A stretch of DNA of 64,000 nucleotides from positions 26,413-90,412 of the forward strand of contig DASPSQ010000009.1 in assembly GCA_035623855.1 (NCBI GenBank), in the 5' to 3' direction. The notes under the pieces are model-generated. The model was not told the origin of the DNA. It saw nothing but the letters and a program-made list of their open reading frames with translations, and made no database searches. Source of the stretch: Thermoplasmata archaeon. Lineage in GTDB: Archaea; Thermoplasmatota; Thermoplasmata; Lutacidiplasmatales; UBA184. A program made the position numbers and the translations under genes. Below, piece by piece: positions 25,316 through 47,567 of the stretch. How positions within the stretch are numbered: position 1 is the stretch's first letter; each line of letters starts with the position of its first letter.

Positions 25316-27247
<1,932 letters not shown>

Positions 27248-32009: not shown

Positions 32010-32082
32010 GCCGCGGTGGCTCAGCTGGTAGAGCGGCTCCTTGGTAAGGAGCAGGTCGAGGGTTCAAACCCCTCCCGCGGCT
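32010..32082 (+). tRNA. tRNA-Thr (anticodon GGU)
   Basis: 73-nt cloverleaf: GCCGCGG acceptor pairs with CCGCGGC, D-arm GCUC-AGCUGGUA-GAGC, anticodon arm GCUCC-UUGGUAA-GGAGC, T-arm GAGGG-UUCAAAC-CCCUC, discriminator U. No CCA is encoded. Confidence 0.85.
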
Positions 32083-32101
32083 GGAATTTCACTCAGCTCA
32101 C

Positions 32102-33163
32102 ATGCTAATTTGGGGGCGATCCCTTCCGTTCTTCGTGAACCGGGGTCGGACCGTTTCTCGTCTCCTTAAATCGCGAGAGCCATCTGTCCGCTGGAAGGCA
32201 CGGGTTCGGGTGCTCGGAGAAGAACCCGACTCGAGGCCAATCCGCGAACTCCGCGAGCAGATTCGGGTCTCGCCTCGGACCAGAGCGTTACTGGCGACGC
32301 GGAGAAGGCCCGGGCGTCGAGCCCCCGTCGGAATCTATCACAAGTGGCTGGGAACGCATTGGGCTCTGGCCCAGCTCGCAGACGTCGGGTATCCTTCGGG
32401 AGATGAATCACTCGAGCCGCTGGCTCGGCAAGCCTTGGACCTGTGGCTTCAGCCAGCTTACTTTCGCGAGTTTGACGCTTCCACGGAAGAGGAAGCCACT
32501 CGTCGGCATGACGCGGTCCCGAGGTTGGCGGGACGTTATCGACGATGTGCATCGCAACAGGGCAACGCACTGTTCTACTGCACCACGCTTGGCTTGGCAC
32601 CCGACGCGTGCGACCAGCTGGCGGAGCGACTGATGCACTGGCAGTGGCCCGACGGGGGCTGGAACTGCGACCGAAATCCCAACGCCGACACATCGTCCTT
32701 TGGTGAGACGCTCACGCCGATGTTGGGTCTCTTTGCCTACGGAACGGCCCGCCGAAAGACGGTCGCTATTCAAGCGGCGCGTCGGGCCAGCGAAGTATTC
32801 CTGCGCCGCCGTCTCTATAAGCGAGTCTCTGACGGCCACGTCATCCATTGGGAGTTTGCCGAACTCCACTACCCGCTCTACTGGCACTACGATGTCCTCG
32901 GCGCGCTGAAAGTCCTTGGTCCGATGGCACAGTTGGATGACCCTCGATGTGACGACGGGTTGAATCTGCTCGAGTCCAAGGAGCTGCCCGGCGGCGGTTG
33001 GCGGGCCGATCGCCGCTACTACGACCTCCCGGGCGAGCGACCCCGAAGGGGAACCGATCGGGTCCGTTGGGGGCGCCTGGGACGTAACACGATGAACGAA
33101 TGGGTGACCGCAGACGCTCTGTCGGTCTTGCGCGCCGCCGGTCGCCTTTCCCCGGGGGAGTGA
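32102..33163 (+). CDS. Alpha/alpha-toroid (prenyltransferase / terpene-cyclase-like repeat) protein, hypothetical function
   Basis: 353 aa with repeated aromatic-GGW motifs (WQWPDGGWNCD, LPGGGWRAD) characteristic of squalene-cyclase/prenyltransferase beta-type repeats. First cassette after the tRNA. Confidence 0.45.
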   Translation: MLIWGRSLPFFVNRGRTVSRLLKSREPSVRWKARVRVLGEEPDSRPIRELREQIRVSPRTRALLATRRRPGRRAPVGIYHKWLGTHWALAQLADVGYPSGDESLEPLARQALDLWLQPAYFREFDASTEEEATRRHDAVPRLAGRYRRCASQQGNALFYCTTLGLAPDACDQLAERLMHWQWPDGGWNCDRNPNADTSSFGETLTPMLGLFAYGTARRKTVAIQAARRASEVFLRRRLYKRVSDGHVIHWEFAELHYPLYWHYDVLGALKVLGPMAQLDDPRCDDGLNLLESKELPGGGWRADRRYYDLPGERPRRGTDRVRWGRLGRNTMNEWVTADALSVLRAAGRLSPGE

Positions 33164-33291
33164 GGCTCGTCGCCGGCTCGTCTCCATCGACGTGCCACCA
33201 AGTCGAGCCGCGAGACCAGGCCTAGGTTTCCGTGCTCGTTGCACGAGAAATCGGTGTCGATTCTCTCCGGAGGATCATTCGAGCCCGGGAA

Positions 33292-33329
33292 GGGATTCGA
33301 ACCAAAAGGGAAGGTCCTCCCCCGGCCTC
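33292..33329 (+). repeat. Degenerate copy R1 of tRNA-Thr 3'-end-derived repeat
   Basis: GGGATTCGAACC..aaaaggga..TCCTCCCCCGGCCTC, same architecture as the other copies (inverted T-arm-like arm plus CTCCCGCGGCTG-like tail). Confidence 0.5.
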
Positions 33330-33402
33330 AGGCAGACGGACTTTCCAGTGCCACAATCCACACTTCTCAGAAACTTTAATTGTAGGATATCCATAACAGC
33401 AA

Positions 33403-33627
33403 TTGAATCATACCATGGCGGCAACGACCATCACCGTTTCTCAGGAGACTCGAAAGCTGTTGGAGGGTCTGAAGACCGGCGGTGCCACCTACGACGACGT
33501 GATTCGCGGCCTGATCATCGCCCATCCCACTCAACTCACGCTGGCGGAGTTGGCCCGGCGGATTCGAGAGGGGAAGCCGCATCCTATCGAGGAGCTCATC
33601 GCTCGCAGCCGAGAACAGCCCTACTGA
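33403..33627 (+). CDS. Putative antitoxin (ribbon-helix-helix-like)
   Basis: 74 aa. N-terminal TITVSQETRKLLEGLK fits a beta-strand then helix RHH pattern. It sits immediately upstream of a RelE/ParE-like ORF (8-nt gap). Confidence 0.4.
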   Translation: MNHTMAATTITVSQETRKLLEGLKTGGATYDDVIRGLIIAHPTQLTLAELARRIREGKPHPIEELIARSREQPY

Positions 33628-33634
33628 GGGAACC

Positions 33635-33979
33635 GTGCCGTTCCGCCTCGAGAGCGTCGAGGAGGCGGACACCGAGTTTCTCGCCCTTCCTCCCGATGTT
33701 CGAGAAGTGTTCATCGCGGCGTTTCGAGAGCTGGCTGCCAGCGATACTCCGCTCGCCCGGGGACCCGGGTGGTACACGGAGGAGCTGCGACAACGCCAGC
33801 GTGTCGCACCACAAGGGCTGTTCTCGCTCCACGTCCGGAATCTCTGGAGAGGGGTCTACTTTCGGCGCGGCAGGTCCCTGATCTTCATCGCTTTCGGATT
33901 CCGACTGCCCGAGTTCTACGACAAACTGAAACGGTTGCGGAAGGTAATCTCGACTCCAGCCCTTTCGGGGCGGATTTGA
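33635..33979 (+). CDS. Putative RelE/ParE-family toxin
   Basis: 114 aa, basic, small-toxin-like sequence pattern (LWRGVYFRRGRSLIFIAFGFRLPEFYD). Its stop codon lies inside repeat R2. Confidence 0.4.
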   Translation: MPFRLESVEEADTEFLALPPDVREVFIAAFRELAASDTPLARGPGWYTEELRQRQRVAPQGLFSLHVRNLWRGVYFRRGRSLIFIAFGFRLPEFYDKLKRLRKVISTPALSGRI

Positions 33980-34008
33980 ACCCTTCGTTCAATCCCCTCC
34001 CGCGGCTG
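33972..34008 (+). repeat. Copy R2 of tRNA-Thr 3'-end-derived repeat
   Basis: GGATTTGAACCCttcGTTCAATCCCCTCCCGCGGCTG; the last 14 nt are identical to the tRNA-Thr T-stem/acceptor 3' strand. Confidence 0.7.
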
Positions 34009-34310
34009 TGTTCCCCCCCGAAAACTCCTTTCGAGAGGGCAACCTCCAGAGACGAGCTCAGCCGTTCGGGAAGTACCGATCCGTGGTGGCCGCTGGGACA
34101 TGCCCGGAATCCTCGGTTTGCGGGCAGGTGGCCAAGAATCGATTTTCGAGGGTGTCGCCGGATCCCCCCTCTTCCTCGGGGGAACGTAGCCTGTCCTCGG
34201 CATGGACGGGCCGCGGCTTGGGGGGCCGAACCCCATCGCCGCTCCAGACGCGGGTCAAAGCCCGTCGGTTCGAAAGTCGGGGATCTCCTCGACCGTACGA
34301 AGGTGAGGTC

Positions 34311-35000
34311 CTACCAGGTCTTCTGGAGGACTTCGGCGACCGAGGGCAGGTCACGAAGTCTAACCTTAGCTCCCGTCTGGAGGGGACCCTGATCCCATCC
34401 CCTCTCTACCGTGAGGAACGCTTCTCTCCAGGTCGACGGTTCCGCCCCCCGAAGATGCAGAATGTGCTCATACCCAAACCGGTTTGCGTTCGGGGCATCC
34501 GCCCACAACATGAGCACAGGTCCTCCGGCCTCTACGATGGAACGGATCGTGGGGCCCACAACATCTGCCGGATACAAGGTGTGTAGGCGATGCGCCCCCG
34601 ACAGAACCAGAATCGGCCTCGGTCCTTCGCGCGGAAGTCGGGAGAGCATATCCTGAGTCTGCTGCGGGAGGCGGAGGAACTCGGCAAAAGAACGGACGGA
34701 CTCGTCCCCCTCATCCGACCGTATGAGGTAACCGAGCGCGACATTGCCGACAGGTTCGTTCCTCTCGAGTACTTTCGGAGCGACGACAATGAGCCTATCC
34801 TGCGGAATGAGCGAGGTCTTCAGCAGATCTGTATCTTCGAGCACTTCGCCCTCCAGCTGGACATGCCCCCAAAGGAAACCGCCCGGATGCCCGAACACCA
34901 GGCCATAGGCGACCCAGTTGAGCAAGGAGCGACCACTGCCACAGATAATCACGGAGGTGCGCGGCTCAAACAATCCTTGGGGTGGCGCGGTAGGGACCAT
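34311..35000 (-). CDS. Hypothetical protein (possibly degenerate RecA/KaiC-superfamily fold)
   Basis: 229-aa ORF in the correct codon frame. IICGSGRSLLNW resembles a Walker-A loop but lacks the lysine. No confident family assignment. Confidence 0.35.
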   Translation of the reverse strand: MVPTAPPQGLFEPRTSVIICGSGRSLLNWVAYGLVFGHPGGFLWGHVQLEGEVLEDTDLLKTSLIPQDRLIVVAPKVLERNEPVGNVALGYLIRSDEGDESVRSFAEFLRLPQQTQDMLSRLPREGPRPILVLSGAHRLHTLYPADVVGPTIRSIVEAGGPVLMLWADAPNANRFGYEHILHLRGAEPSTWREAFLTVERGWDQGPLQTGAKVRLRDLPSVAEVLQKTW

Positions 35001-35340
35001 CGAGCCCTCTTTCTTGATCCGGAAGGAGATGATGTCCCTTCCTCTTGTCTCTATTGCCCCAAGCGGTGTCGGCCCGAGCGATTGCCTCGCGGCAGTCGCA
35101 AGTGCATCGGAGGCAGTCCAAGTTGATCACACGCGCACCCTGAGGTTCTCGCGGGAACCGATCTGCTCCGAAGGGACGTGAACCAAGATGTCGGTCCCTC
35201 CCACAGCTGGAATTTCCTTCAGCCTTCAGGATATCTCGGAACTTGGAAGGCTTCCCCGAGGCCAAACTTTGCACGTCCCCAACATGGGCCGAGAAGAAAC
35301 CCTTTCGTGGACTTGGGCGGTACCGAGCCCAGAATTCGGT

Positions 35341-35964
35341 ATGCTAAGAACCAATCGAGCGATCACGAGGCTCTCAGGACTTCCGCGATACTCGACAAAG
35401 GAGCTGTCCCCCCAATCTTGGCGAGACTTTGAGAGCCTCTTTCTGAGGAAAAGCGAAGGTGGAGGTTGCTGGTGCATGATCTTTCATCATCTCGGTCGAC
35501 TTCCGAAGACCGAAAAGGGAGGGATGACCCCGGCCCGAGTCGCCAGGTGCCGCAAAGAGAAGCGAACCTTGGTGTGGAAGGGTGCCTCCCACGGCATCCT
35601 GGTCTACGCGAACACAGAACCGGTCGGGTGGTGCCAATACGGCCCGAAGGAAGAGCTACCTCGAATCGATGCGGGGACGCTCTACAGGAAGCTCGCAATC
35701 GACCACGATCGCCAGCGACTTTGGAGGATTACATGCTTCTGGGTCGACCGGAAGCATCGCAATCGGGGGGTTGCAAGCACAGCCTTGGGTGCAATCCTCG
35801 AATCGATCAAAAGAAAGGGCGGAGGACTTGTCGAAGCGTATCCAGCCAAAGTAAAGGGATTCCCGGCCGACTGGATGGGCACCTGGTCCATGTTCCGGAA
35901 GGAAGGATTCGAAATCGTGGCGCCCTACGGTGCATCCAACGTGCTCGTACGGCGGACGGTGTAA
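35341..35964 (+). CDS. GNAT-family N-acetyltransferase
   Basis: ITCFWVDRKHRNRGVASTALGAILESIKRKG matches GNAT motif A (R/Q-x-x-G-x-G/A). Start uncertain; 35188 and 35284 are also in frame. Confidence 0.6.
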   Translation: MLRTNRAITRLSGLPRYSTKELSPQSWRDFESLFLRKSEGGGCWCMIFHHLGRLPKTEKGGMTPARVARCRKEKRTLVWKGASHGILVYANTEPVGWCQYGPKEELPRIDAGTLYRKLAIDHDRQRLWRITCFWVDRKHRNRGVASTALGAILESIKRKGGGLVEAYPAKVKGFPADWMGTWSMFRKEGFEIVAPYGASNVLVRRTV

Positions 35965-36028
35965 CACGGGTCAAGGCCGGCAGCGAATCTTGGCCCAGGC
36001 CAGCGCGGGCAGGGGCACCCGCATCGCT

Positions 36029-36062
36029 GTGAACCCTCAGTTCAAACTCCTCCCCCGCCCGG
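36029..36062 (+). repeat. Degenerate copy R3 of tRNA-Thr 3'-end-derived repeat
   Basis: GTGAACCCTCAGTTCAAACTCCTCCCCCGCCCGG; left arm truncated, tail mutated. Confidence 0.55.
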
Positions 36063-36164
36063 AAAATCTCGTACGGGATGCGCCCTCGTATTGACTTCGC
36101 CGTGCCAACGGCTTGAGCTATCGCGACTGGCGGAGTAATTAGGGCCGGCTCATCATCCCAAGCC

Positions 36165-38369
36165 GTGGCGTCGCCGCCCCTCACCCCAGAACGGGTGTTC
36201 GGCAGCCCCGCGTTGTCGGGGCCGGTGGCTCGGGGCGTTGAGGTCTCGCCGGACGGTCGCTACGTCACCTTCCTGGCTCCCGAGCCGACGAATCAGTTCA
36301 AGCTCGATCTGTGGATTGCGCCGGCGGATGGCGGCGAAGCTCGTCTCCTGGTCTCTGGTGAGGCCGTCGAACCATCTGACCAGAGCCTAAACGAGGCCGA
36401 GAAGAGCCGACGAGAACGGATGCGACTGGCGGCGGTCTCCGGCGTGTTGACCTATCACTGGGACGAACAGTCCAGGATGCTGCTGATTCCCGCCGGCGGC
36501 GAACTCTACACCGCTGACGCCCGGACCGGCCGTGTGGCGAGGCTCAACACCGGCGGCCCCGGTGCCACCGACGCTCGAATCTCTCCGTTGGGCCGTTACG
36601 TGAGCTATGTGCGTGACCAGAACCTCTATGTGATCGACTTCGACGATGGCCGGGAGCGAGCACTGACGACGGAGGGGCAGGGGCCGATCAGCTTCGGTGT
36701 CGCCGAGTTTGTCGCCCAGGAAGAGATGGGCCGCTACACCGGCTATTGGTGGGCGCCGAACGACGACGCCATCGCGTACGCAAGGATTGACGAGAGCCCG
36801 GTTGAGATTGTCCCGCGGCTCGAGGTTGCCGTGGAGGGCGCCCGGGTCTCATCCCAACGGTATCCCCGCGCCGGCACGGCCAACGCCCTGGTCAGCCTGT
36901 ACGTGCGGCGGATGACGGACGACGGGTCGCCGGTGCTCGTCGACTTGGGCACCGCTACCGACGTCTATCTAGCGCGAGTTCACTGGTCGGCCGACGGGCG
37001 CGATCTCTATGTGGAACGCGAGAGCCGTGATCAGAAGAGGCTCGACCTGCTTCGAGTCGACCCCGCCACCGGAGACTCCGTCGTAATCCTCAGCGAAACT
37101 CGATCACCTTGGGTCATGCTCACCCACGATTTTCGTGCCTTGAAGGATGGTGATTTCATTTGGGCGTCCGAGCGCTCCGGTTCCAATCAGTTGTATCTCT
37201 ACCATGGCGACGGAACCCTGGTGCGGTCCATTACTGCCGGCAACGCCCCGGTGGTGCGTGGCGCCCTCGGCGCCGGCGCCGAGGCGCCGGGCTTAGTGGG
37301 TGTCGACGAGGAAGAGGGGGTTCTCTACTTCATGGCCTCTCGCGAGACCCCGATCGAGCGCCAACTCTATTCGGTCTCCTACCGCGCCCCGGCAGAACCC
37401 GTGGCCGTCACCCAAGGTCACGGGTGGTGGACCGCAGTGATGCCCCAGTCTGCGACCGTGTTCGTGGGCTACTACTCCGACCCAGTAACGCCACCGCAGA
37501 CCGCCCTACTCCGCGCCGACGGCCAGCGGTTGCGGTGGGTCGAACAGAACGCCCTCGACGCCCACCACCCGTACGCCCCCTACGCCGCGCGCTATCCGCT
37601 GCCGGAGTTTGGCACTCTGAAATCTTCGGATGGCCAGGACCTTTACTACGTCCTACAAAAGCCCGTCAACTTCGATCCGTCCCGCCGATATCCGGTGATC
37701 GTTAGAGTCTACGGAGGGCCCGCCGCGCAGTTTGTGACGCGTGCCTGGCCGGATGTGAGGGAGAAGCTCTTCCTCGAGGCCGGCTTCCTTGTCTTCTGGC
37801 TCGACAATCGCGGGTCGGCCAATCGCGACTCCACTTTCGAGGGGGCGATTGCCGGCCGACTAGGGTCGGTGGAGGTTGATGACCAGATCGTCGGGTTGGA
37901 CTGGCTCAAATCGCTGCCCTTCGTGCGCGCCGACAAGATCGGTGTCTGCGGCTGGTCCTACGGGGGATTCATGGCGCTGCGCATGCTCACCGACCCGCGG
38001 GCCCATCTCGCGGCCGGCGTGGCCGGCGCCCCGGTCACCGACTGGCGTCAGTACGACACCCATTACACGGAGCGCTACTTGGGAGACCCCACGGTCAACG
38101 CCGCCGCGTACGACCACTCAGCAGTCATCCCGCGCCTTGGTGCCTTGTCCGGCCGCCTGCTCCTCATTCATGGGATGGCCGACGACAACGTTCCACTCGG
38201 GAATTCTATCGCGGTGATGGCGGCCCTCCAGGCCCAGGGAACGCTCTTCGACCTGATGCTCTATCCCGGTGAGCGTCACGGCGTTCAGGGTGTAGGTCGA
38301 CAACTCCAGCTCTGGCGAACTCTGCTCGGGTTCTTCGTACGGGAACTGGGCGGGAACGCAGGTCTCTGA
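36165..38369 (+). CDS. S9-family serine peptidase (dipeptidyl-peptidase IV / prolyl oligopeptidase type)
   Basis: 734 aa. N-terminal beta-propeller region, then alpha/beta-hydrolase domain with GWSYGG (catalytic Ser), GMADDNV (Asp) and GERHG (His). Confidence 0.8.
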   Translation: MASPPLTPERVFGSPALSGPVARGVEVSPDGRYVTFLAPEPTNQFKLDLWIAPADGGEARLLVSGEAVEPSDQSLNEAEKSRRERMRLAAVSGVLTYHWDEQSRMLLIPAGGELYTADARTGRVARLNTGGPGATDARISPLGRYVSYVRDQNLYVIDFDDGRERALTTEGQGPISFGVAEFVAQEEMGRYTGYWWAPNDDAIAYARIDESPVEIVPRLEVAVEGARVSSQRYPRAGTANALVSLYVRRMTDDGSPVLVDLGTATDVYLARVHWSADGRDLYVERESRDQKRLDLLRVDPATGDSVVILSETRSPWVMLTHDFRALKDGDFIWASERSGSNQLYLYHGDGTLVRSITAGNAPVVRGALGAGAEAPGLVGVDEEEGVLYFMASRETPIERQLYSVSYRAPAEPVAVTQGHGWWTAVMPQSATVFVGYYSDPVTPPQTALLRADGQRLRWVEQNALDAHHPYAPYAARYPLPEFGTLKSSDGQDLYYVLQKPVNFDPSRRYPVIVRVYGGPAAQFVTRAWPDVREKLFLEAGFLVFWLDNRGSANRDSTFEGAIAGRLGSVEVDDQIVGLDWLKSLPFVRADKIGVCGWSYGGFMALRMLTDPRAHLAAGVAGAPVTDWRQYDTHYTERYLGDPTVNAAAYDHSAVIPRLGALSGRLLLIHGMADDNVPLGNSIAVMAALQAQGTLFDLMLYPGERHGVQGVGRQLQLWRTLLGFFVRELGGNAGL

Positions 38370-41958: not shown

Positions 41959-42028
41959 CCGGTAGCATTAATCCTTCCCCTCAAAGCACCGCTCCGCCGG
42001 AGGGCTTATAAATCCCCGCCCCCATGGT

Positions 42029-42053: not shown

Positions 42054-42064
42054 GACTGGCCTCC

Positions 42065-43465
42065 GTGTCAGATTCGACAGATCCTGCGGGGAGCACGGTC
42101 CGTAGTGCGACGGCGAATCCGTCCGGTGGCCGGGGGCAGATCGCAGCGGTTCAGAGGAGCGTCACGAACGCGCTCGCGCGGTCTGGCCGGATGGGGTTCG
42201 TCTCGCGGATTTACTTCCGGTACCGGCGGTTCTCGAAGCATCTTGCGATTCTTGCCGCGGTGATCGGCCCCGGTGTCATCGTGATGGTGGCCGATAACGA
42301 CGCCGGCGGGATCACGACGTACATGCTCTCTGGCGCGTACTATCGGTACAGTTTCATTTGGATCGTCTTGTTGCTCGGGCCGGTCGCGTACGTCTGCCAG
42401 GAGATGACCGTCCGACTGGGGGTCATGACCAAACGCGGTCACGCCCAAGCGATTTTCGAGGCGTTCGGCCCGTTCTGGGGATGGTTCTCGCTGAGCGACC
42501 TCACGCTCACCGATTGCCTCACCATCACGACCGAGTTCATCGGAATGACGATGGCCATGGCCGTGTTCGGAATCCCTCCCCTTTTCACCGAGATCGTCGT
42601 GATCACGTTCATCATGCTCATGCTGATCAACGGCCGGTACTGGACCTGGGAAAAGATCGTCCTCGCCATCTGCGCCGTGAACATGATCTACGTCCCGGTG
42701 GTCTTCTTCATCCATCCCAACGTCAGCGACATCTTCCGCACGGGGGTCGTCCCCGGCTTCCCCGAGGGGCTTGGCGGGCCGGTCATCTTCCTCCTCATGG
42801 CGACGATCGGAACCACGATTGCGCCCTGGATGATCTTCTTCCAGCAGAGCTCCGTGGTCGATAAGGGGCTCAAGAAGCGGGACGTTCCGTACGCCCGTTG
42901 GGACACCGCGATCGGATCGACGTTCACGGTCATCACCGCGGTCGCGCTCATCATCATCGCGACGCTCTTCTTTGGAGGGGACATGAGCCTCACCTCCGCT
43001 GGGCAGGCGGCGGGCCTGCTGATGGCGATTCACCCCTGGGTGGGCACGATCCTGGCCATCGGGCTGTTTGACGCCGGCCTCATCGGAGCATTGTCCGTCT
43101 CGTTGGCCAGCTCCTGGGCCGTGGGCGAAGTCTTCGGATGGTCCCACTCACTCAACGACCGCCTAGGGCAGGCGAAGTGGTTCAACGTGTTCCGTCTGAG
43201 CATCATGTGCATCGCCGGTAGCATCGTTCTGATTCCCGGGGCCCCGCTCGGGTTGATCACCCTCTTCGTCCAGGTCATCGCCGTGACCTTGCTGCCGGCC
43301 GCGTTGGTCTTCTTGATCGTGCTCCTGAACCAAGAGGAGCTGGTGGGAAGCTACAAGAACACGCGAGCCCAGAACATCATGGCCGGGACCATCGTTGGCG
43401 CCCTTCTAGCCCTCTCGACGCTCTATGCGGTCGGGACCATCTTACCGAAGCTGTTTGGAGGCTGA
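42065..43465 (+). CDS. mntH: Nramp-family divalent metal cation transporter
   Basis: 466 aa, ~11-12 TM. GPGVIVMVADNDAGGITTY matches the Nramp DPGN-like metal-site motif region; the MntH layout is conserved. Confidence 0.85.
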   Translation: MSDSTDPAGSTVRSATANPSGGRGQIAAVQRSVTNALARSGRMGFVSRIYFRYRRFSKHLAILAAVIGPGVIVMVADNDAGGITTYMLSGAYYRYSFIWIVLLLGPVAYVCQEMTVRLGVMTKRGHAQAIFEAFGPFWGWFSLSDLTLTDCLTITTEFIGMTMAMAVFGIPPLFTEIVVITFIMLMLINGRYWTWEKIVLAICAVNMIYVPVVFFIHPNVSDIFRTGVVPGFPEGLGGPVIFLLMATIGTTIAPWMIFFQQSSVVDKGLKKRDVPYARWDTAIGSTFTVITAVALIIIATLFFGGDMSLTSAGQAAGLLMAIHPWVGTILAIGLFDAGLIGALSVSLASSWAVGEVFGWSHSLNDRLGQAKWFNVFRLSIMCIAGSIVLIPGAPLGLITLFVQVIAVTLLPAALVFLIVLLNQEELVGSYKNTRAQNIMAGTIVGALLALSTLYAVGTILPKLFGG

Positions 43466-43471
43466 CGAAGC

Positions 43472-43645
43472 ATGACGGTGTTCCACGACGCAGCCGAGAA
43501 GCTACGCGAGATCAACCGGACCTATGCCGTCCCTCGAATTCGCATGACCGCCGGGACGAAGGCCGTCCTGATCCTCCTTCGGATCTATCTGCTCACTCTG
43601 GTGAGCTTGCTCCTCTATTCCTTGCTCACCCGTGCCGGGGTCTAG
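43472..43645 (+). CDS. Small hydrophobic ORF downstream of mntH (hypothetical, 57 aa)
   Basis: ATG 6 nt after the mntH stop. Encodes MTVFHDAAEKLREINRTYAVPRIRMTAGTKAVLILLRIYLLTLVSLLLYSLLTRAGV, with one predicted TM helix. It falls below the 60-aa cutoff of the supplied ORF track. Confidence 0.3.
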   Translation: MTVFHDAAEKLREINRTYAVPRIRMTAGTKAVLILLRIYLLTLVSLLLYSLLTRAGV

Positions 43646-43685
43646 GGAGGGGGGCGAGGGTGGCGCGCCGGAGGTCGCGTGGAAA

Positions 43686-45053
43686 ATGATTTCGTCCAAC
43701 GATCCCGAGAGGAAGACCGCGCCCCCAAGGGGGGCGAATGGGGGTAGTCCGGCAAGTTCGGCGGCCCGCATCCGAGAGATCGAGGAGGCCCAGTATCTCG
43801 AGGTGAGCGAGCTCGTGGATCGCAAGGTCCGAACGGAGGCCGGCGCGACGCTCGGGCGGCTCCAGGATTTCATCTTTACCGATGACCCGAAGTACGCCGA
43901 AGTGACCCACTTGGTGGTTCGCCGGGCGTTCGGCCGACCACCGTTGAAGGTGCCATGGTCCCAGGTTCTCCGCATGGACCCTTCGGAGACGGTCGCGAGG
44001 GATCTCGCCGAGGGGACCGAGTACGAGAGCATCGAAGATACCGGCGAGCTGTTGCTCCTGCGCGACCGGATTCTCGACAAACGCATTCTCGATACCCGAG
44101 GCTTGGGGATTGACGTGGTCTACGACATCCAATTGCTAAGGGCGGGCAACCAGCTCTTCATCGTGGCGGCGGTGACGGGTCCGGAGGCCCGGCGGCGTCG
44201 CCTGGGTCTCTGGGGAAAGGTCGCCGCTTCCGTATCCGAGGGCCACGTCCCCGAGGAGCGGATTCCTTGGAAGTACGTTCAGCCCATCGGCCCCGAACTC
44301 ACGAGCACCGCGGGCGACGTGCGACTCACGGTCACTCGGGAAGCTCTGGGCAGGATTCCCCCGGTCGATGTGGCCGATATCCTCGAGGAGCTCAGCCGCG
44401 AGGAGCGGCTCACCCTCTTCAACGCCCTCGACACCAGGGCAGCGGCCCTCGCCCTGGAAGCGACGGAGCCCCGGGTGCAGCGGGAGATCATTGCGGACAC
44501 CGAGGCAGCCCGGCTCGGGCAGATCATCGTTCACCTTTCCCCCGTGGAGATCGCCGACATCGTCACCATCCTCCCCGACGACGACGCCCGCGAGCTGCTG
44601 GGGATGCTGAAGGGAGAGGTCGCCACGAAGGTGCGGTCAATCGTCGAGGAGCACGAAGTGCCCGCCCTCACCCTCGCGGTCCACACGTATCTCGAGTTTC
44701 CCGGGGAGACCCCGGTCGAGGAAGCGTTCGCGAGGTTCCGTCGGGAGGCTCCGAAGTGCCTCGTTACGATGTACATCTACGTGGTCGATGCGGACCGGCA
44801 CCTTCGAGGAGTTGTCGACATCAATGAGCTCCTGCAAGCCGACCCCGTGCGGCCGCTCGAGGAAATCATGACCCAAGGACTGGTCACCGTCTCCCCGCAA
44901 ACGAGCTGGACTCAAGTGCTCGAGCTCTTCCGCAAGTACCGGTTTCGGGCGATTCCCGTGGTGGACGACTCTCGGAAGATTCTCGGAGTGATTCGCGAGA
45001 AGGACGCCTTCGTCCTCGAGGACGAGGAAGTGCGCTCGAAGCGTCGCCTCTAG
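43686..45053 (+). CDS. Soluble MgtE-N / CBS-pair domain protein with N-terminal PRC-barrel-like region (no pore domain)
   Basis: MgtE-N-like helical region (DVADILEELSREERLTLFNALD...IADIVTILPDDDARELL) followed by two CBS motifs; no TM segments. Start set at MISSND. Confidence 0.6.
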   Translation: MISSNDPERKTAPPRGANGGSPASSAARIREIEEAQYLEVSELVDRKVRTEAGATLGRLQDFIFTDDPKYAEVTHLVVRRAFGRPPLKVPWSQVLRMDPSETVARDLAEGTEYESIEDTGELLLLRDRILDKRILDTRGLGIDVVYDIQLLRAGNQLFIVAAVTGPEARRRRLGLWGKVAASVSEGHVPEERIPWKYVQPIGPELTSTAGDVRLTVTREALGRIPPVDVADILEELSREERLTLFNALDTRAAALALEATEPRVQREIIADTEAARLGQIIVHLSPVEIADIVTILPDDDARELLGMLKGEVATKVRSIVEEHEVPALTLAVHTYLEFPGETPVEEAFARFRREAPKCLVTMYIYVVDADRHLRGVVDINELLQADPVRPLEEIMTQGLVTVSPQTSWTQVLELFRKYRFRAIPVVDDSRKILGVIREKDAFVLEDEEVRSKRRL

Positions 45054-45100
45054 CGAGGCCTCTGAACCCGGACTTCATGCCCTTCCCTCGTCTCCCTTCG

Positions 45101-46726
45101 TCAACGGGTGCGGTCGGCTCGCCTCGAGCCGGCGGTCGTCGGGTTCCGTGGTCGTCGTCCGGGGCGTTCGGCCTGTCGGTCGGGGACCGGGGCCAAGGGC
45201 CCGGACTCCTGCGGTTCCCTCTTCGGGAGCAGTCGGCCACGGAGCCACAGGGCTGACAAAAAGGCCGCGAGGACGAGGAACGCGGCGGCGAGGAAGACGT
45301 CGGCGTACGAGCCCGCAAGAGCGTTCCGGAGCGCCGAAGGAATGGCCGCCCCCGAGCTCAGCTGCCGGAACCGGTCGGTCTGGTAGATCGTGAGGAGCGA
45401 GATCCCGATCGCTCCTCCCAGGCTTTGAAAGAACCGCGTCAAACCGACTGCCGCGCCGATCTCCGCCGGGGGAGCCTCGTTCTGGACGGCAACCGTCGCC
45501 CCCGCAAGGGCGAGGCCGAGGCCGAAGCCGACGGGGATCAGCGGCAGGACCAGCCCTCCGACGGGGACGAACCCGTAGGCGAGCCGCCAGAGAGGCGTTG
45601 AGGCCGTCACCGTGCCCAGGGCGAGCGCGGCCAAGCCCGAGACCAACAGCCCGGGCGCGACCATCGCGCGGTACGAGACCCGATCGAGAAGCGGTCCGGA
45701 GAGAGCCGCACCGACGATCATCGGGATTGCAAAGAAGTAGATCACGTCGCGGATCTCCGCGGCCGAACCCCCCAGCACGAGCCCGACATACAGGGAAAGG
45801 AACGTCAGGGATCCGCTGAAGACCACGCCGAGGAAGAGCATGATCGCGCTCGAGGACCCTACGACCCGTTCCCCCAGCATTCGAAGAGGGACGAGCGGCT
45901 GGGGATGACGGAGTTCCCAGAAGAGGAAGGTGAAGAACAGGGCCACGGCTGTGATGAGTAGCGCGAGGGTCGCGGGGTCCGTCCATGTCCAGCCGTCTTC
46001 CGAAATCTGGACGAGCGGGAGCATCAGCGCGGCCACCCAGGACGAAAGGAGCACGGCTCCCGGCAGATCGAACGAGCCTCGAGACTCGGGACGCAGCGGA
46101 CCCACCACCGCCCAAATGATGACGAAACCGAAGAGGCCGAAGGGGAGGTTAATGTAGAACACCCACCGCCATGTGGTCACCGACACGATGTAGCTGCCCA
46201 GGAGCGGCCCCGCTACGATCGCCACTCCGGCCGCGCCGGTCAGCGCTCCGATCACTTTGGCCCGCACTTGGGGAGGGTAGAGGAGCGCGACCATCGCGAT
46301 CGCCACCGGGAATACGGCTCCTCCACCGAACCCCTGCATACTGCGGAAGGCGATCAGCTCCCCGAGCGTCTGGCTCAAGCCGGCGAGCGCCGATCCGACG
46401 ATGAAGATCACGAGACCGACGAGAAACACGTTCCGGCGGCTCGAGATGTCCGAAAGGCGTGCGAAGATGGGAATCGCGAGGGTTGAGGCGATGAGGTATC
46501 CCCCGACGACGAACGGGGCTCCGTTGACCTGGTGCAGGCTGCTCGCGATGGTGGGGAGTACGGTCGACACGACAAGGCCGTCCATTGCACCCATCAGGAT
46601 CGCGAGGAAGACGCCGGTCAGCACGAGCGCGCTCGCGCGGGGCGAAAGTGTCGGAGAGGCCGTGGTGGCCGGACCCGTCCTGACGCCGTTCCCCGGTCGA
46701 ATTCCTGAGCGAGTCGGGTCGGTCAT
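45101..46726 (-). CDS. MFS transporter, DHA2 (EmrB/QacA) 14-TMS drug:H+ antiporter family
   Basis: 541 aa with 14 hydrophobic segments and an MFS motif A region (GxLaDrxGrR-like: LSDISSRRNVFLVG). Confidence 0.8.
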   Translation of the reverse strand: MTDPTRSGIRPGNGVRTGPATTASPTLSPRASALVLTGVFLAILMGAMDGLVVSTVLPTIASSLHQVNGAPFVVGGYLIASTLAIPIFARLSDISSRRNVFLVGLVIFIVGSALAGLSQTLGELIAFRSMQGFGGGAVFPVAIAMVALLYPPQVRAKVIGALTGAAGVAIVAGPLLGSYIVSVTTWRWVFYINLPFGLFGFVIIWAVVGPLRPESRGSFDLPGAVLLSSWVAALMLPLVQISEDGWTWTDPATLALLITAVALFFTFLFWELRHPQPLVPLRMLGERVVGSSSAIMLFLGVVFSGSLTFLSLYVGLVLGGSAAEIRDVIYFFAIPMIVGAALSGPLLDRVSYRAMVAPGLLVSGLAALALGTVTASTPLWRLAYGFVPVGGLVLPLIPVGFGLGLALAGATVAVQNEAPPAEIGAAVGLTRFFQSLGGAIGISLLTIYQTDRFRQLSSGAAIPSALRNALAGSYADVFLAAAFLVLAAFLSALWLRGRLLPKREPQESGPLAPVPDRQAERPGRRPRNPTTAGSRRADRTR

Positions 46727-46744
46727 GGTACCACCGCGTTCGAA

Positions 46745-46768
46745 TATAACTGACTACAAGTTAGTATA
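46745..46768. promoter_or_regulatory. Candidate TetR operator / divergent promoter (imperfect palindrome in AT-rich spacer)
   Basis: TATAACTGACTACAAGTTAGTATA followed by AAATCTTTAA, in the 130-bp AT-rich region between the divergently oriented MFS and TetR genes. Confidence 0.45.
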
Positions 46769-46857
46769 AAATCTTTAAGTCATTTAATGTGCGACAGGAA
46801 AGAGATTATACGCTGGGAAGGGGTTCTCCGTTCCGACGGCGAGGGCGTCGGCCGGTC

Positions 46858-47460
46858 ATGCCAAAGGTCGTTCCCGAGTACAAGGAGCAGGCCCGGGCGA
46901 GGATCGTGGAAGCGGCCGCTGCAGTGTTCAAGCGGGAGGGCTTGCCCGCCGGCACGATGGACGAAATCGCGCGTGAGATCGGAGTGAGCAAAGGGGCGCT
47001 CTACCTCTACTTCCCGACGAAGGCCCGCCTCCTCGAGGCCGTCCAAGCGAAGTATCGTGCCCAGTACATCGGAACACTCGAGAGACGGCTTGAGCACGGT
47101 GACGTGGCCGAAGGAATCGTCGACTCGATCGATGGGATCCTCTCGGGCGAGTTCGACCCGTCCGTGTTTCACCAGCTCGTGATGAGCGCCGGGACTGAAC
47201 CCGAAGTACGGGAAGCGATGCGTGCCGACGCCCGGGGGGACCGAATCGAACTTCGGAAGCTCCTGAAGCACCTCGAGGCTGAGGGACGCATCCCACGGAT
47301 GAAGGACCCGGAGGCCACGGTGGACGCGGTGATACTCCTCCTCCAAGGGACGTTCATGGGCGCGGCCCTGCGGGGCGACCCGAAGGAAAGCCGTGAGCAG
47401 CTCGTTCGCGCGCTTCGTCTGGTGCTCGGCCCTCCCTCCCGAGGTCCGAGACGAAACTGA
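46858..47460 (+). CDS. TetR/AcrR-family transcriptional regulator
   Basis: RIVEAAAAVFKREGLPAGTMDEIAREIGVSKGALYLYFPTKARLL is the TetR HTH signature. An alternative upstream start at 46789 would give an Arg-rich extension. Confidence 0.75.
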   Translation: MPKVVPEYKEQARARIVEAAAAVFKREGLPAGTMDEIAREIGVSKGALYLYFPTKARLLEAVQAKYRAQYIGTLERRLEHGDVAEGIVDSIDGILSGEFDPSVFHQLVMSAGTEPEVREAMRADARGDRIELRKLLKHLEAEGRIPRMKDPEATVDAVILLLQGTFMGAALRGDPKESREQLVRALRLVLGPPSRGPRRN

Positions 47461-47528
47461 GTCCGCGTTCGATGAGAACGGATACCCAGACGGAAGTTCC
47501 GAAGTCGGGAAAGCAGCTTCAGCGAGTG

Positions 47529-47567
47529 AGGGATTTGAACCCTCAGTTCACCTCCATTCCGCGGTTG
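47529..47567 (+). repeat. Copy R7 (last) of tRNA-Thr 3'-end-derived repeat
   Basis: GGGATTTGAACCCTCAGTTCACCTCCATTCCGCGGTTGA. Confidence 0.6.

Follow-up and report, generated by a model that had tools for sequence, protein, structure and literature searches.

An array of integrase-less gene cassettes at the 3' end of tRNA-Thr(GGU) in Lutacidiplasmatales-like Thermoplasmata

Host Xer recombinases are responsible for the movement of pdif modules and IMEX elements, which, like the array described here, are recombinase-less, include toxin-antitoxin modules, carry short palindromic sites and occur in varied contexts. In this array, which resides behind tRNA-Thr(GGU) of an uncultured peat-soil archaeon from a clade of Lutacidiplasmatales-like Thermoplasmata, the sites are, by contrast, all in one orientation and tied to the tRNA end, the cassette boundaries lie outside the palindrome, and a dedicated integrase family occupies the same tRNAs in relatives.

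Site-specific accretion and cis-mobilisable elements (CIMEs) at tRNA or other bacterial genes (ICESt1/ICESt3; PMC5704250) are similar in that tandem elements, separated by att repeats, occupy the 3' end of a gene that is regenerated as target, while some elements without integration genes retain their att sites and rely on an integrase from an adjacent element or from one newly arriving. The integrase-less units of the present locus are, however, of much smaller size, with a median of 1.2 kb, and occur in far larger numbers, up to 8-9 to an array; the same discrete cassettes recur in many genomes, relics of lost integration genes are absent from the arrays, and the host is an archaeon, with no conjugation machinery involved. 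Integrons and CALINs (PMC9668308) likewise contain short, mostly single-gene cassettes with a recombination site at the 3' end, have a single fixed chromosomal insertion point, are rich in toxin-antitoxin cassettes and include arrays without a nearby integrase. Here, however, IntI is lacking, each site reproduces the 3' end of a tRNA and is conserved in sequence, whereas integron attC sites are conserved in structure, and insertion occurs at a tRNA gene instead of attI. Since genes of both orientations are present in the arrays, there is no common Pc-driven expression logic, unlike in integrons.

The preprint on Prochlorococcus tycheposons (bioRxiv 10.1101/2020.12.28.424599) describes islands located beside tRNA genes, including tRNA-Thr(GGU), in which older elements are displaced inward as integration is repeated, degraded elements and incomplete tRNA copies lie dispersed throughout, and the cargo genes are niche-adaptive. 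As described there, tycheposons are kilobases long, are defined by their own integrase and replication genes and leave remnants, whereas the present locus holds recurrent 1-kb cassettes that are intact, lack an integrase and have an inverted-repeat site of their own. Finally, archaeal tRNA-integrating elements (SSV, pTN3/pT26-2, SNJ2; PMC8371274, PMC6563490) encode a tyrosine integrase directed at the 3' portion of tRNA genes; these elements, Thaumarchaeota cryptic integrated elements among them, are bordered by direct repeats of the tRNA end, and arrays resulting from re-use of a site are known. In contrast to the "suicidal" split integrases of the SSV type, the integrase gene in the clade studied here is intact beside attL. 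In addition, identity with the tRNA extends over only 13-21 nt, the att site includes an inverted copy of the T-arm, and the array is built mostly of integrase-less cassettes.

Repeat units and cassettes of the window

The window (the whole 64-kb stretch of DNA analysed) carries eight same-strand units behind tRNA-Thr(GGU), plus a decayed ninth (Table 1). A unit (~37 nt) is composed of an inverted T-arm copy, GGGATTYGAACC, followed by 4-10 nt and a 13-nt core, CCCTCCCGCGGCT, identical to the last 13 nt of the tRNA (32070-32082), i.e. the 3' strand of the T-stem, the 3' strand of the acceptor stem and the discriminator. All copies have in common the terminal 12-13 nt of the tRNA, (C)CCTCCCGCGGCT; subtype A units additionally retain GTTCAAAY. 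A type-A unit can be read as a pair of inverted arms of ~11 nt separated by a spacer of 5-6 nt, while in type-B units a gap of 17-19 nt separates short complementary ends. In a profile HMM search of the window only the eight units and the tRNA scored (E 1e-11 to 1e-5), all on the + strand in the 32.0-47.6 kb interval; the match that came next had E=0.15.

Table 1. Anchor, cassettes, units and right border of the variable region (window positions)
Feature	Position	Strand	Content
tRNA-Thr(GGU)	32010..32082	+	array anchor (attB-like site); ARAGORN; Rfam RF00005, 69.8 bits
Cassette 1	32083..33327	+	ORF 32633-33163 (176 aa as called on source contig; no Pfam or NCBIfam match); unit 1 (type B) 33291-33327
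Cassette 2	33328..34007	+	antitoxin-like ORF 33415-33627 (70 aa); RelE-fold toxin 33635-33979 (114 aa)
Unit 2 (type A)	33971-34007	+	overlaps toxin stop codon; closes cassette 2
Cassette 3	34008..35208	-	ORF 34311-35000 (229 aa; no family match); unit 3 (type B) 35171-35208 on +
Cassette 4	35209..36060	+	GNAT acetyltransferase 35476-35964 (PF00583); unit 4 (degenerate type A) 36025-36060
Cassette 5	36061..38607	+	DPP-IV/S9 peptidase 36165-38369 (PF00930, PF00326)
Unit 5 (type A)	38571-38607	+	best-preserved copy, HMM E=1.5e-11; closes cassette 5
Cassette 6	38608..39566	+	DUF981 membrane protein 38845-39531 (PF06168), stop codon abutted by unit 6 (type B) 39530-39566
Cassette 7	39567..41614	-	oxidoreductase 39749-40780/40927 (PF16884 ADH_N_2, PF00107); GNAT 40940-41464 (PF00583)
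Unit 7 (degenerate)	41579-41614	+	closes cassette 7, whose genes run on -
Cassette 8a	41615..45082	mixed	CsoR-type repressor 41683-41958 (-), Nramp/MntH 42065-43465 (+), MgtE_N+CBS 43632-45053 (+); Pfam
Unit remnant of cassette 8a	45059-45082		decayed; weak on its own
Cassette 8b	45083..47566	mixed	MFS transporter 45101-46726 (-), TetR regulator 46789-47460 (+); Pfam
Unit 8 (type A)	47529-47566	+	diverged core CATTCCGCGGTT, E=2e-8; closes cassette 8b
Distal part of variable region	47567..56670		three adenylate/guanylate-cyclase + TPR genes (one with an AAA_16 domain), YCII, kinase-like gene; Pfam
AsnC-type double-HTH regulator	56671..57639	-	first conserved far-side gene, right border; Pfam

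A first-pass annotation of this DNA had listed seven copies of a ~21-nt tRNA end, each preceded by an inverted arm. A + strand unit is present at all seven positions, and there is a clear eighth (35171-35208) that had been overlooked, as had the decayed ninth; the eighth divides into two cassettes what had been taken for one (an unknown protein plus a GNAT). The full 21-mer (<=3 mismatches) was matched three times, 0 matches being expected: by the tRNA itself and at 33988 and 38588. The arm GGGATTYGAACC (<=2 mismatches) is present in five of the eight units and is degenerate at those starting at 35172, 36025 and 41579; in the window it has six matches, including the tRNA T-arm read on the minus strand, against 1.58 expected. 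The ninth unit, located behind the CBS gene, gave an nhmmer score of 1.6, non-significant alone, and aligns to the intact unit that closes the same CsoR-Nramp-CBS cassette in a relative (L032). The conservation of the copies shows no steady fall with distance from the tRNA: outward from it, the HMM scores are 21, 36, 23, 23, 40, 34, 21, ~2 and 30. Simple stacking, with the newest cassette next to the tRNA, therefore does not explain everything.

The window cassettes (0.7-3.5 kb) are all foreign in composition, with a G+C content of 0.585-0.65 vs 0.67 in the flanks and deviant tetranucleotide use. The first-pass reading of their cargo was borne out except for the first ORF, listed as an alpha/alpha-toroid protein, for which neither Pfam nor NCBIfam gave a match. 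The 114-aa protein of the toxin-antitoxin-like pair adopts a RelE/YoeB/HigB fold in an AlphaFold2 model (mean pLDDT 77.7), for which the top 46 PDB matches found by Foldseek are all toxins of such systems, mostly RelE/YoeB/HigB/YafQ and some ParE, and Pfam bore out the remaining GNAT, peptidase, membrane protein, oxidoreductase, metal-related, transporter and regulator assignments (Table 1).

On the Nop5/AhpC/LplA/GyrB side of the tRNA, gene order is strictly syntenic across the compared relatives, and the succession ECH, Nop5, tRNA-Thr(GGU) has the same placement in ~77 related loci; the sequence beyond the tRNA 3' end is different in each compared relative. The variable region of the window spans 32083-56670. 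Its distal part has no units detectable by the profile HMM and a still low G+C (0.65), and its cyclase-TPR genes form unit-bounded cassettes in relatives L006, L020, L067 and L217. The AsnC-type regulator is syntenic in L005 and L010, where the variable region measures 7.6 and 5 kb, respectively. All data are metagenome assemblies; two ENA assemblies made independently and a pair of JGI contigs agree on the cassette order of the window.

No recombinase had been recognized in the window, and none was found there by Pfam among 45 larger predicted genes or by tblastn with 120 homologues of the clade integrase described below (no match at E<1e-3). About ten predicted genes were outside the Pfam scan (in 1687-2016, 18400-18906, 20411-22516, 22643-23236, 23233-24735, 25331-27247, 43472-43645 and 62557-62874). 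For most of 20-27 kb the gene table of an identical contig (L001) lists no recombinase, its entries being GyrB, GrpE, HMG-CoA reductase, SNO, DUF131, diphthamide synthase, NUDIX and NAC.

A clade-wide hot spot with shared cassettes

The window locus is one case of an integration hot spot present throughout the clade, for which 136 units were counted in 72 contigs. Among ~77 related genome loci (1.28 Mb), 48 full-unit matches lie downstream of tRNA-Thr vs two weak ones upstream, and all significant matches but one are on the tRNA strand. In 58 metagenome contigs with arrays, every co-resident tRNA is tRNA-Thr(GGU), located upstream and co-oriented. This confinement agrees with the original view of the units as recombination sites or scars at a tRNA hot spot. 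The 110 complete cassettes have a median length of 1,219 bp and in 87 cases contain one or two genes, and arrays reach 8-9 cassettes. The mixed gene orientation noted in the window holds generally: 106 genes share the orientation of the units and 58 (35%) are opposite.

Related genomes contain the same cassettes in another order. As the first-pass annotation had foreseen, the boundaries are precise: homology stops exactly at the core, each cassette beginning directly behind the tRNA discriminator base (...GGCT|). The commonest is the RelE-fold toxin-antitoxin pair. In the window (33339-34008) it is 78-85% identical to its counterparts in L029, L056, L052, L049, L020 and L018, with homology starting just past GGCT and ending within the next core. 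At least 17 distinct copies occur elsewhere, at array positions 1, 2 or 3. The unit on their 3' side is essentially always of type A, while on the 5' side they adjoin the tRNA in 6 copies, a type-B unit in 7, a type-A unit in 1 and something else in 1. In another lineage (L215, L216) this cassette lies directly behind the discriminator of tRNA-Cys(GCA), whose 3' end, CCCTCCCTCGGCT, is near-identical to that of tRNA-Thr(GGU). Cassette 1, adjacent to the tRNA here, follows other units in L113, L197, L187, L126 and L138. Homologues were also found of cassette 3 (L172, L115, L138), cassette 5 (L010, 78%; L184, 82%), cassette 6 (L101, L184) and cassette 8a (79% identity over 3.4 kb to the L032 cassette with its intact end unit; also L125, L188, L207, L209, L110), as well as a block homologous to cassette 8b (L178). 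Between genomes, cassettes are 3-13 points more similar than the adjoining core genes, a modest excess that could partly reflect selective constraint, and part of the cassette sharing could result from vertical inheritance and rearrangement.

In some relatives only, tRNA-Thr is accompanied by a gene for a tyrosine integrase of ~400 aa whose C-terminus carries a zinc ribbon. In L217, L044 and L038 it lies directly 3' of tRNA-Thr(GGU), and in L090 at a distance of 5 kb, so a recombinase is known for this site. Integrase fragments are present in L055 and L081 (N-terminal) and L046 (internal), and in L072 an N-terminal part is broken off by the contig end. The integrase-bearing elements are 7-9 kb long. 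In L217 the tRNA is followed by a 7.9-kb int element ending in a type-B unit, then by a cyclase-TPR cassette and a Zn-ribbon cassette, each with its unit. A unit at the distal end was seen in two of these few elements (L217, type B; L055, type A), a small number of cases suggesting that the integrase may act at standard units. Further subfamilies reside behind tRNA-Thr(CGU) in L219-L221 and, in L222-L227, at the tRNA-Cys site that holds the toxin-antitoxin cassette in L215/L216.

Origin of the array

We consider it likely that integrase-less cassettes were stacked at the tRNA-Thr(GGU) 3' end through site-specific recombination and are mobilised in trans. A circular cassette would recombine, within the core, with the tRNA or with any core already in the array; this would restore an intact tRNA and leave the inverted repeat and core of the cassette at the distal end, so that the array grows. 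A crossover inside the core is what the cassette boundaries suggest. The likely enzyme would be the integrase encoded directly behind tRNA-Thr in relatives, which presumably acts on the cassettes. For those of the window, insertion, excision and shuffling would depend on an integrase provided in trans, since the genome lacks such a gene within the 64 kb, and, judging from the comparison between genomes, they may still be mobile.

The first-pass annotation had left two readings side by side: an array serviced in trans and an accretion of decayed elements. According to the latter, the cassettes are remnants of once-autonomous, integrase-encoding elements, the array is now static, and genomes resemble one another through vertical descent, with units now and then undergoing homologous recombination. 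This corresponds to the bacterial CIME route documented for islands, in which integration is followed by loss of integration genes and further integration (PMC5704250). It is consistent with the decay of integrase elements at this very site (the fragments in L055, L081 and L046), the degenerate units at 36025, 41579, 45059 and 47529, the distal cyclase-TPR block now devoid of units and the lack of any observed excision product, circular junction or empty site. Independent decay is, however, unlikely to have produced a 0.68-kb toxin-antitoxin cassette with identical ends in at least 17 distinct copies, both at array positions 1, 2 and 3 and next to another tRNA. The small size of the cassettes (one or two genes) and the free variation of a given cassette's 5' neighbour also count against it. 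Moreover, an integrase gene would be expected directly behind a core, and tblastn with the 120 homologues detected no relic beside any of ~130 internal units, nor elsewhere inside the arrays of the window and the 58 metagenome contigs. The tiny cassettes, their recurrence with core boundaries at varied positions and at a second tRNA, and the lack of integrase fragments in arrays favour servicing in trans, and we regard a purely fossil array as rather unlikely, although tandem accretion of integrase-bearing elements does also happen at tRNA-Thr.

Movement by the host XerA, with the inverted repeat of the unit mimicking chromosomal dif as in IMEX/pdif elements, appears improbable. Bacterial dif has ATAA/TTAT at the inner arm positions, where the units have GAAC/GTTC. 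Thermococcales dif sites, for comparison, have 14-18 of 28 positions in common with the bacterial dif consensus (Cortez et al.). Type-A units do share the geometry of dif, XerA integrates DNA in vitro without partners (PMC8371274), and in L215 and L216 the tRNA-Cys site has a XerA-like gene at a distance of 5.6 kb. Yet the cassette boundaries fall not at the spacer but within the 13-nt core, which is situated right of the inverted repeat, type-B units have a gap of 17-19 nt between their complementary ends, and a dedicated integrase family is found at exactly these tRNAs. Still less probable is a true integron or CALIN, whose attC sites would be recombined as folded single strands by an IntI-type integrase from another locus, even though both have been reported in archaeal MAGs (PMC9668308) and the array, with an imperfect palindrome behind each short, mostly single-gene cassette and frequent toxin-antitoxin cassettes, recalls sedentary chromosomal integrons. 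The units are conserved in sequence and not in structure alone: across 43 type-A units, 76.0% of cells pair vs 77.3% in shuffles, and covariation does not exceed the control. Their AAC...GTT motifs are 5-6 nt apart instead of terminating a site of 55-140 nt, the core is a tRNA 3' end, the insertion point is the tRNA and not attI beside intI, over a third of the cassette genes are on the opposite strand, and the IntI model gives the clade integrase 38 bits, with a cut-off of 265. IntI, attC structure, insertion point and orientation, every testable defining feature, thus contradict this reading; what stands of the "undescribed integron-like system" first proposed is the integron-like array.

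The units would hardly be anything other than recombination sites, such as a REP/MITE-like repeat of dispersed type, a transcription terminator or a signal for processing of tRNA-like RNA, a reading to which we assign the lowest probability. They are intergenic, often directly behind a stop codon, are stem-capable and in many copies precede a T-rich run (GATTTTC). Their distribution contradicts it, however: they are confined behind one tRNA and share its strand irrespective of how the adjacent genes are oriented, and cross-genome homology breaks exactly at them; no Rfam family matches them and they show no covariation. Genome-wide dispersal was not seen in a sample of ~2.2 Mb and one unbiased metagenome pattern scan. 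Nor did the other signs that had been named as adverse appear, namely relatives with the same genes in the same order without repeats, or similarity limited to a generic GC-rich terminator.

Mobilisation in trans is in keeping with the position of the tyrosine integrase behind the same tRNA, in an element ending in the same kind of unit, which argues for classical tRNA-att recombination with integrase-less passengers. As the cassettes are reordered between relatives, and the likely recombinase is present in only some of these, the array looks like an integron without being one. Homologues of the clade integrase are annotated in Ferroglobus, Bathyarchaeota, Nitrososphaerales and other archaea.

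Repeat units downstream of tRNA-Thr(GGU)

Direct-repeat searches and multiple alignment revealed units of about 37-40 nt downstream of the tRNA-Thr(GGU) gene of the window, all of them on the plus strand (see the table). The seven repeat positions listed in the first-pass annotation were each recovered as a unit, and the unit at 35171 is additional to these. The 21-nt repeat described there proved too long: the exact 21-mer, with no more than 3 mismatches allowed, occurs at two sites only, and the part common to all copies is the last 12-13 nt of the tRNA gene, (C)CCTCCCGCGGCT. When the whole 64 kb was searched with a profile HMM of the unit, the eight copies and the tRNA alone scored (E-values of 1e-11 to 1e-5; next-best match in the window, E=0.15), with no unit elsewhere in the window outside the array. 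They are thus genuine repeats, not chance similarities, and stay within 32-47.6 kb. One more copy, the ninth, is decayed; it follows the CsoR-Nramp-CBS block, and is recognisable only because this block is 79% identical to a cassette with an intact end unit in the locus of a relative (L032).

The units are of two types, namely type A, (A)GGGMTTTGAACCC-TTAG-TTCAAAYCCCTCCCGCGGCT, and type B, GAGGGATTCGAACC-(8-10 nt)-nCCCTCCCGCGGCT. The left arm is the reverse complement of the T-arm (GGTTCRAATCCC), and the right part reproduces the tRNA through its discriminator, starting from the T-loop (type A) or from the 3' strand of the T-stem (type B). Among 43 distinct type-A units, 76.0% of the cells of the 12-bp stem pair, compared with 77.3% in column shuffles, and covariation (0.127 versus 0.136 in the control) shows no excess. 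Since pairing does not exceed the shuffle level and covariation is absent, the unit is a sequence-conserved inverted repeat and not an attC-type, structure-selected hairpin; judged by its sequence, it fits what protein-binding half-sites would show. A structure-selected hairpin was ruled out by the lack of covariation, and an RNA element by an Rfam scan of the window, which detected the tRNA alone and no RNA family in the units. Successive integrations, as envisaged in the first-pass annotation, should have left units diverging with distance from the tRNA. The unit scores are not monotonic along the array, and therefore insertion at the tRNA alone cannot fully explain the array.

The window matches metagenome contigs of two ENA assemblies and of JGI tropical-peat samples, all with identical cassette order, and its Nop5 protein falls among homologues of uncultured Thermoplasmata, including UBA184 and AcS MAGs. 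We fetched the orthologous locus from 80 species-representative genomes, about 77 of which were usable. In relatives the Nop5-AhpC-LplA-amidohydrolase-GyrB side is strictly syntenic, and everything beyond ECH and tRNA-Thr differs. The tRNA-Thr(GGU) gene is in place in nearly all of the fetched loci, with 1-5 units downstream of it in 20-25 of the about 77 usable ones. Throughout these loci (1.28 Mb) there are 48 full-unit matches downstream of tRNA-Thr versus 2 weak ones upstream, and significant units lie on the tRNA-Thr strand, the sole exception being an inverted copy about 30 nt past tRNA-Thr in L061 (also in L188). No other significant unit on the opposite strand was seen, and this one could speak for inversion instead of excision. 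A dispersed repeat of the REP/MITE type was rejected for these 1.28 Mb and the window, as 48 of the 50 matches in the former are downstream of the tRNA and 45 of the 50 are on its strand.

When JGI metagenomes were scanned with an unbiased pattern, more than 119 stretches were obtained. Of these, 58 proved to be true array contigs, carrying up to 6-7 units; wherever these contigs include a tRNA, it is always tRNA-Thr(GGU), upstream and co-oriented. The resulting census comprises 136 units on 72 non-redundant contigs and 110 complete cassettes, most of them with 1-2 genes and with a median size of 1,219 bp (10th-90th percentile, 685-2,565 bp). Exact-pattern scans gave 0 matches for the composite type-A pattern in viral contigs and 0 for GTTCAAACTCCTCCCGCGGCT in species-representative genomes. 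The single viral match of a gapped pattern (contig L093) lies inside a 768-aa ORF with no tRNA, and was taken as chance.

Features of the window and of related loci (L-numbers denote loci of relatives or metagenome contigs)
Feature	Location	Strand	Content	Basis
tRNA-Thr(GGU)	32010-32082	+		Rfam, 69.8 bits
Unit starts	33291, 33971, 35171, 36025, 38571, 39530, 41578, 47529	+		repeat search, alignment
Decayed unit	45059-45082			
Cassette 1			ORF 176 aa, no family match	
Cassette 2	33339-34008		ORFs 70 + 114 aa, predicted RelE-fold toxin-antitoxin pair	
Cassette 3		-	ORF 229 aa, no family match	
Cassette 4			GNAT	Pfam
Cassette 5			DPP-IV/S9 peptidase	Pfam
Cassette 6			DUF981	Pfam
Cassette 7		-	oxidoreductase + GNAT	Pfam
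Cassette 8a			CsoR, Nramp, MgtE_N/CBS	Pfam
Cassette 8b			MFS, TetR	Pfam
Cyclase-TPR paralogue	47687-49681	+	adenylate/guanylate cyclase + TPR	
Cyclase-TPR paralogue	49773-53066	-	adenylate/guanylate cyclase + TPR	
Cyclase-TPR paralogue	54588-56702	+	adenylate/guanylate cyclase + TPR	
AsnC-type regulator	56671-57639		first conserved gene beyond variable region	
tRNA-Gly(CCC)	20389-20477	-	89 nt	ARAGORN
Integrase, full copies	L038, L044, L090, L217			tblastn
Integrase, N-terminal relics beside tRNA	L055 (7281-7466), L081 (218-412)		first 62-66 codons only, directly after tRNA-Thr	tblastn
Integrase, N-terminal part	L072		ended by contig end	tblastn
Integrase, internal fragment	L046			tblastn
tRNA-Gln(CUG) of integrase element	L217 (14080-14151)			
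XerA-like recombinase	L215 (3455-4357), L216 (3438-4352)		Phage_int_SAM_4 + Phage_integrase	
Inverted unit	L061 (1092-1128), L188 (about 12718)	+		

Cassette cargo and exchange between genomes

Most entries of the cargo list in the first-pass annotation were borne out by Pfam; the ORF of cassette 1, for which an alpha/alpha-toroid protein had been proposed, matched no family. The per-cassette k-mer and G+C comparison suggested there gave a consistent result, since every cassette has a lower G+C content (0.585-0.65 versus 0.67 in the flanks) and a deviant tetranucleotide composition. Neither the toxin-antitoxin proteins nor the products of cassettes 1 and 3 had a credible match in Pfam, NCBIfam or a PDB profile search, and the toxin of cassette 2, to which sequence-based annotation was blind, was resolved by fold search alone. 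Its AlphaFold2 model (29-sequence alignment; mean pLDDT 77.7) was compared with the PDB using Foldseek, and the top 46 matches all came from toxin-antitoxin systems, being toxins chiefly of the RelE, YoeB, HigB and YafQ kinds along with some ParE (TM, normalised to target length, up to 0.81). The 70-aa ORF ends 8 nt upstream of the 114-aa toxin ORF. With a RelE-type alpha/beta fold in the model and a small antitoxin gene upstream, cassette 2 is predicted to be a toxin-antitoxin system of the RelE/ParE superfamily.

The toxin-antitoxin cassette is 78-85% identical to segments of six relatives' loci or contigs (L029, L056, L052, L049, L020 and L018). In the multiple alignment, homology starts directly after ...CCCTCCCGCGGCT|, alike where the upstream sequence is the tRNA and where it is a type-B unit, and stops in the next core. 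In 17 distinct copies, found at array position 1, 2 or 3, the 3' unit is essentially always type A, and the 5' neighbour is variable (tRNA in 6, type B in 7, type A in 1, other in 1). The inverted repeat is therefore carried along by the cassette on its upstream side, and sequence specific to a cassette begins right after the discriminator. Moreover, polymorphisms 5' of CCTCCC (ACTCC in several units versus ACCCC in the tRNA of the window) stay with the unit. Taking these two observations together, we infer that any crossover would be confined to the 12-13-nt core.

Other cassettes are shared as well. Cassette 1, which follows the tRNA in the window, comes after other units in L113, L197, L187, L126 and L138, and the S9-peptidase, DUF981, CsoR-Nramp-CBS and MFS-TetR cassettes are also present elsewhere. 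Compared between genomes, the cassettes exceed the adjacent core genes in similarity by 3-13 points. In two loci of a different lineage (L215 and L216), the toxin-antitoxin pair of cassette 2 lies directly against the discriminator of tRNA-Cys(GCA), whose 3' end, CCCTCCCTCGGCT, matches the core at all but one base. The cassettes without an integrase behave as discrete, exchangeable modules.

As conserved genes restart at the AsnC-type regulator, the variable region spans 24.6 kb in the window, compared with 7.6 kb and 5 kb in two relatives (L005 and L010). Its distal part carries no units and contains the three cyclase-TPR paralogues, one of which has an AAA_16 STAND-type ATPase domain. Genes of this family form unit-bounded cassettes in L006, L020, L067 and L217, and those of the window may be old cassettes with decayed units.

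A tyrosine integrase at the same tRNA in relatives

The statement of the first-pass annotation that the window has no recombinase was upheld by Pfam (45 of the larger predicted genes) and by tblastn with 120 integrase homologues. The Pfam scan left out about ten genes of the window; most of the interval of 20-27 kb is covered by the gene table of an identical contig (L001), which contains no recombinase. A regular-expression screen for box II of tyrosine recombinases gave nothing but spurious matches and overlooked the true integrases, because GW, not GH, precedes their catalytic Tyr; it was superseded by tblastn, and the negative results rest on tblastn and Pfam.

A tblastn search with the XerA-like protein of L215 detected a tyrosine recombinase directly 3' of tRNA-Thr(GGU) in two relatives (L038 and L044). 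It represents a family of proteins of about 400 aa with a C-terminal CxxC...CxxC ribbon and 229 database relatives, the closest of which are all from the clade of the window (one homologue is labelled Candidatus Lutacidiplasmatales); distant relatives are annotated in Ferroglobus, Bathyarchaeota and Nitrososphaerales. The protein scores 82 bits against the XerA model (cut-off 220), 38.2 bits against the IntI model TIGR02249 (cut-off 265) and 24 bits against PRK15417 (cut-off 435). A tblastn census of all 2.2 Mb gathered, performed with the 120 homologues, identified the copies and relics listed in the table, with no match in the window or in any of the 58 metagenome array contigs. None of the integrases among the cluster members carries the VEK13_ tag of the window's MAG, a result that is uninformative for the genome.

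The key arrangement is that of L217, where ECH and tRNA-Thr are followed by the integrase, four further genes with a tRNA-Gln, and a type-B unit 7.9 kb from the tRNA; beyond it lie a cyclase-TPR cassette and a Zn-ribbon cassette, each closed by a unit. Three large ORFs of this integrase element (457, 245 and 723 aa) have no family match. In L055 an integrase relic follows the tRNA, with a type-A unit 6.6 kb further on; the reading frame of the relic runs on into a cNMP-binding-domain gene. The closest homologues (69-74% identity) reside after tRNA-Thr(CGU), and the elements that contain them also have a D5-type primase and a resolvase. A subfamily (48% identical) occupies the MetRS-PHP-tRNA-Cys site, i.e. 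that of the toxin-antitoxin cassette in L215 and L216. The putative link between integrase and units is drawn from these few elements.

Two other recombinases were encountered. The PF00589 integrase of L213 and L214 was rejected as the cassette recombinase, being 22% identical to the tRNA-Thr family and having no tRNA or unit nearby. At a distance of 1 kb it has a homologue of cassette 2, a RelE-like toxin-antitoxin pair, and both are part of a defence island (L213, 1-20342) with a G+C content of 0.59, Mrr, a type I restriction-modification system and a TIR-domain gene. The XerA-like gene of L215 and L216, whose synteny is conserved, is 5.6 kb upstream of the tRNA-Cys site holding the toxin-antitoxin cassette, a closeness that is probably coincidental.

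Relation to known systems and possible mechanism

The array is best read as having arisen by recombination, through a tyrosine integrase, of the tRNA 3' end with att sites that mimic the tRNA. Autonomous elements of this system exist and are rare; the arrays consist mostly of small integrase-less cassettes with an att site of their own. As in tRNA-targeted integrative elements, the tRNA is intact and is followed by co-oriented copies of its last 13-21 nt (eight in the window; the same pattern in relatives). Unlike such elements, no cassette of the window has its own integrase, which is present in the L217, L044, L038 and L090 elements at the same tRNA-Thr. Mechanistically, the locus belongs with the kin of bacterial site-specific accretion and CIMEs, tRNA-seeded islands (tycheposons) and archaeal tRNA-integrating elements.

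The resemblance to integrons is one of outcome, i.e. a single docking site, single-gene cassettes with a 3' site, toxin-antitoxin cassettes as stabilisers and arrays that have no integrase nearby. Assignment to integrons or CALINs was rejected on the IntI criterion, as no recombinase was found among the scanned genes of the window and the integrase of the clade is far below the IntI cut-offs. Integron attC sites (55-140 nt, ending in R''/L''...L'/R' boxes) are conserved in structure and variable in sequence, whereas the units are about 37 nt long and sequence-conserved, with pairing at the shuffle level. Integron cassettes are inserted at attI beside intI, with genes co-oriented for Pc; here the docking site is the tRNA-Thr 3' end, and cassette genes run both in the direction of the tRNA (106) and opposite to it (58), with cassettes 3 and 7 of the window reversed.

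The first-pass annotation had offered two explanations, an accretion of decayed elements or a cassette array serviced in trans. The layout is that of CIMEs and site-specific accretion: cassettes 1-8b are core-bounded and devoid of a recombinase, and L217 combines an integrase element with adjacent integrase-less segments in a CIME-like tandem. An origin by decay predicts relics of integration or transfer genes, and tblastn detected no integrase relic next to internal units, either in the window or in the 58 array contigs from metagenomes; such relics as there are adjoin the tRNA (L055 and L081), apart from one internal fragment (L046). We regard fossil accretion as improbable. A further possibility is that the host XerA acts on the units as on dif. 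Type-A units have a geometry like that of dif (11-6-11); type-B units lack it, and the boundaries of the cassettes fall within the core, on the right-hand side of the palindrome, and not at a dif-type spacer. Checked against these boundaries and the literature, this reading is not supported, though it keeps a small probability.

Mobilisation in trans by the integrase of larger elements is the most economical explanation. There is a pool of cassettes that lack an integrase and measure about 0.7-3 kb, each with a site of about 37 nt (a T-arm copy in inverted orientation and the final 13 nt of tRNA-Thr). Their capture and stacking, their shuffling and their exchange from one species to another would take place at the tRNA-Thr(GGU) 3' end, and in another lineage at tRNA-Cys. 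The enzyme would be the tyrosine integrase with the zinc ribbon, which larger elements using the same site would provide in trans, and RelE-type toxin-antitoxin cassettes would stabilise the arrays. In this scheme, Lutacidiplasmatales-like archaea would have a tRNA-anchored means of gene capture that fills the role of an integron with other components; we consider it about as likely as not.

If the cassettes do move in trans, this would be an independent archaeal invention of the integron idea, with one chromosomal dock reshuffling single-gene modules, built from an ordinary tRNA-targeting integrase and tRNA-mimicking sites instead of IntI and folded attC. Heavy lateral gene transfer has been inferred in acid-soil Thermoplasmatota (PMC9287336), for which a concrete mechanism would thus be available; the cargo of the window (metal homeostasis, efflux, peptidase, acetyltransferases, signalling cyclases) fits such a role. 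The tRNA-Thr gene with its units would provide a simple metagenome signature for the flexible gene pool of these uncultured archaea, and a compact integrase with a 13-nt core would be a candidate genetic tool. Even under fossil accretion, the island is sharply bounded and varies greatly, which makes it of use in typing strains. Such arrays are not described in the Lutacidiplasmatales paper or in the literature searched; as coverage of the latter is incomplete, this is no proof of novelty.

Several minor features of the locus were also recorded. The 3' flank of tRNA-Thr is often G(A/G)TTTTC(C) (e.g. in L016, L020, L033, L039, L048 and L071), a motif also present after many units, and its T-run may at the same time act as terminator of the tRNA; where the flank is a different one (TCGGGGC, TTGGTCC and others), the genome has no units, or has the integrase. 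A second tRNA-Thr(GGU), complete in L030 (region 2503-9067) and partial, beginning at the anticodon arm, in L024 (region 509-5830), lies 5-6.4 kb downstream of the first. This duplication was rejected as an integrase-bearing island, since Pfam identified, between the two copies, a dTDP-rhamnose/glycosyltransferase cluster with no recombinase. The tRNA-Gly(CCC) gene of the window probably contains an intron, given its length, and a similar 94-nt tRNA-Gly(CCC) is present in L052. Finally, short-read Logan contigs of the same or related strains (L003, L004 and L008) end no more than about 30 nt from the end of ECH, i.e. at tRNA-Thr, and two JGI contigs (L128 and L156) break at or near units, which fits branching of the assembly graph and hence strain variation at the hot spot.
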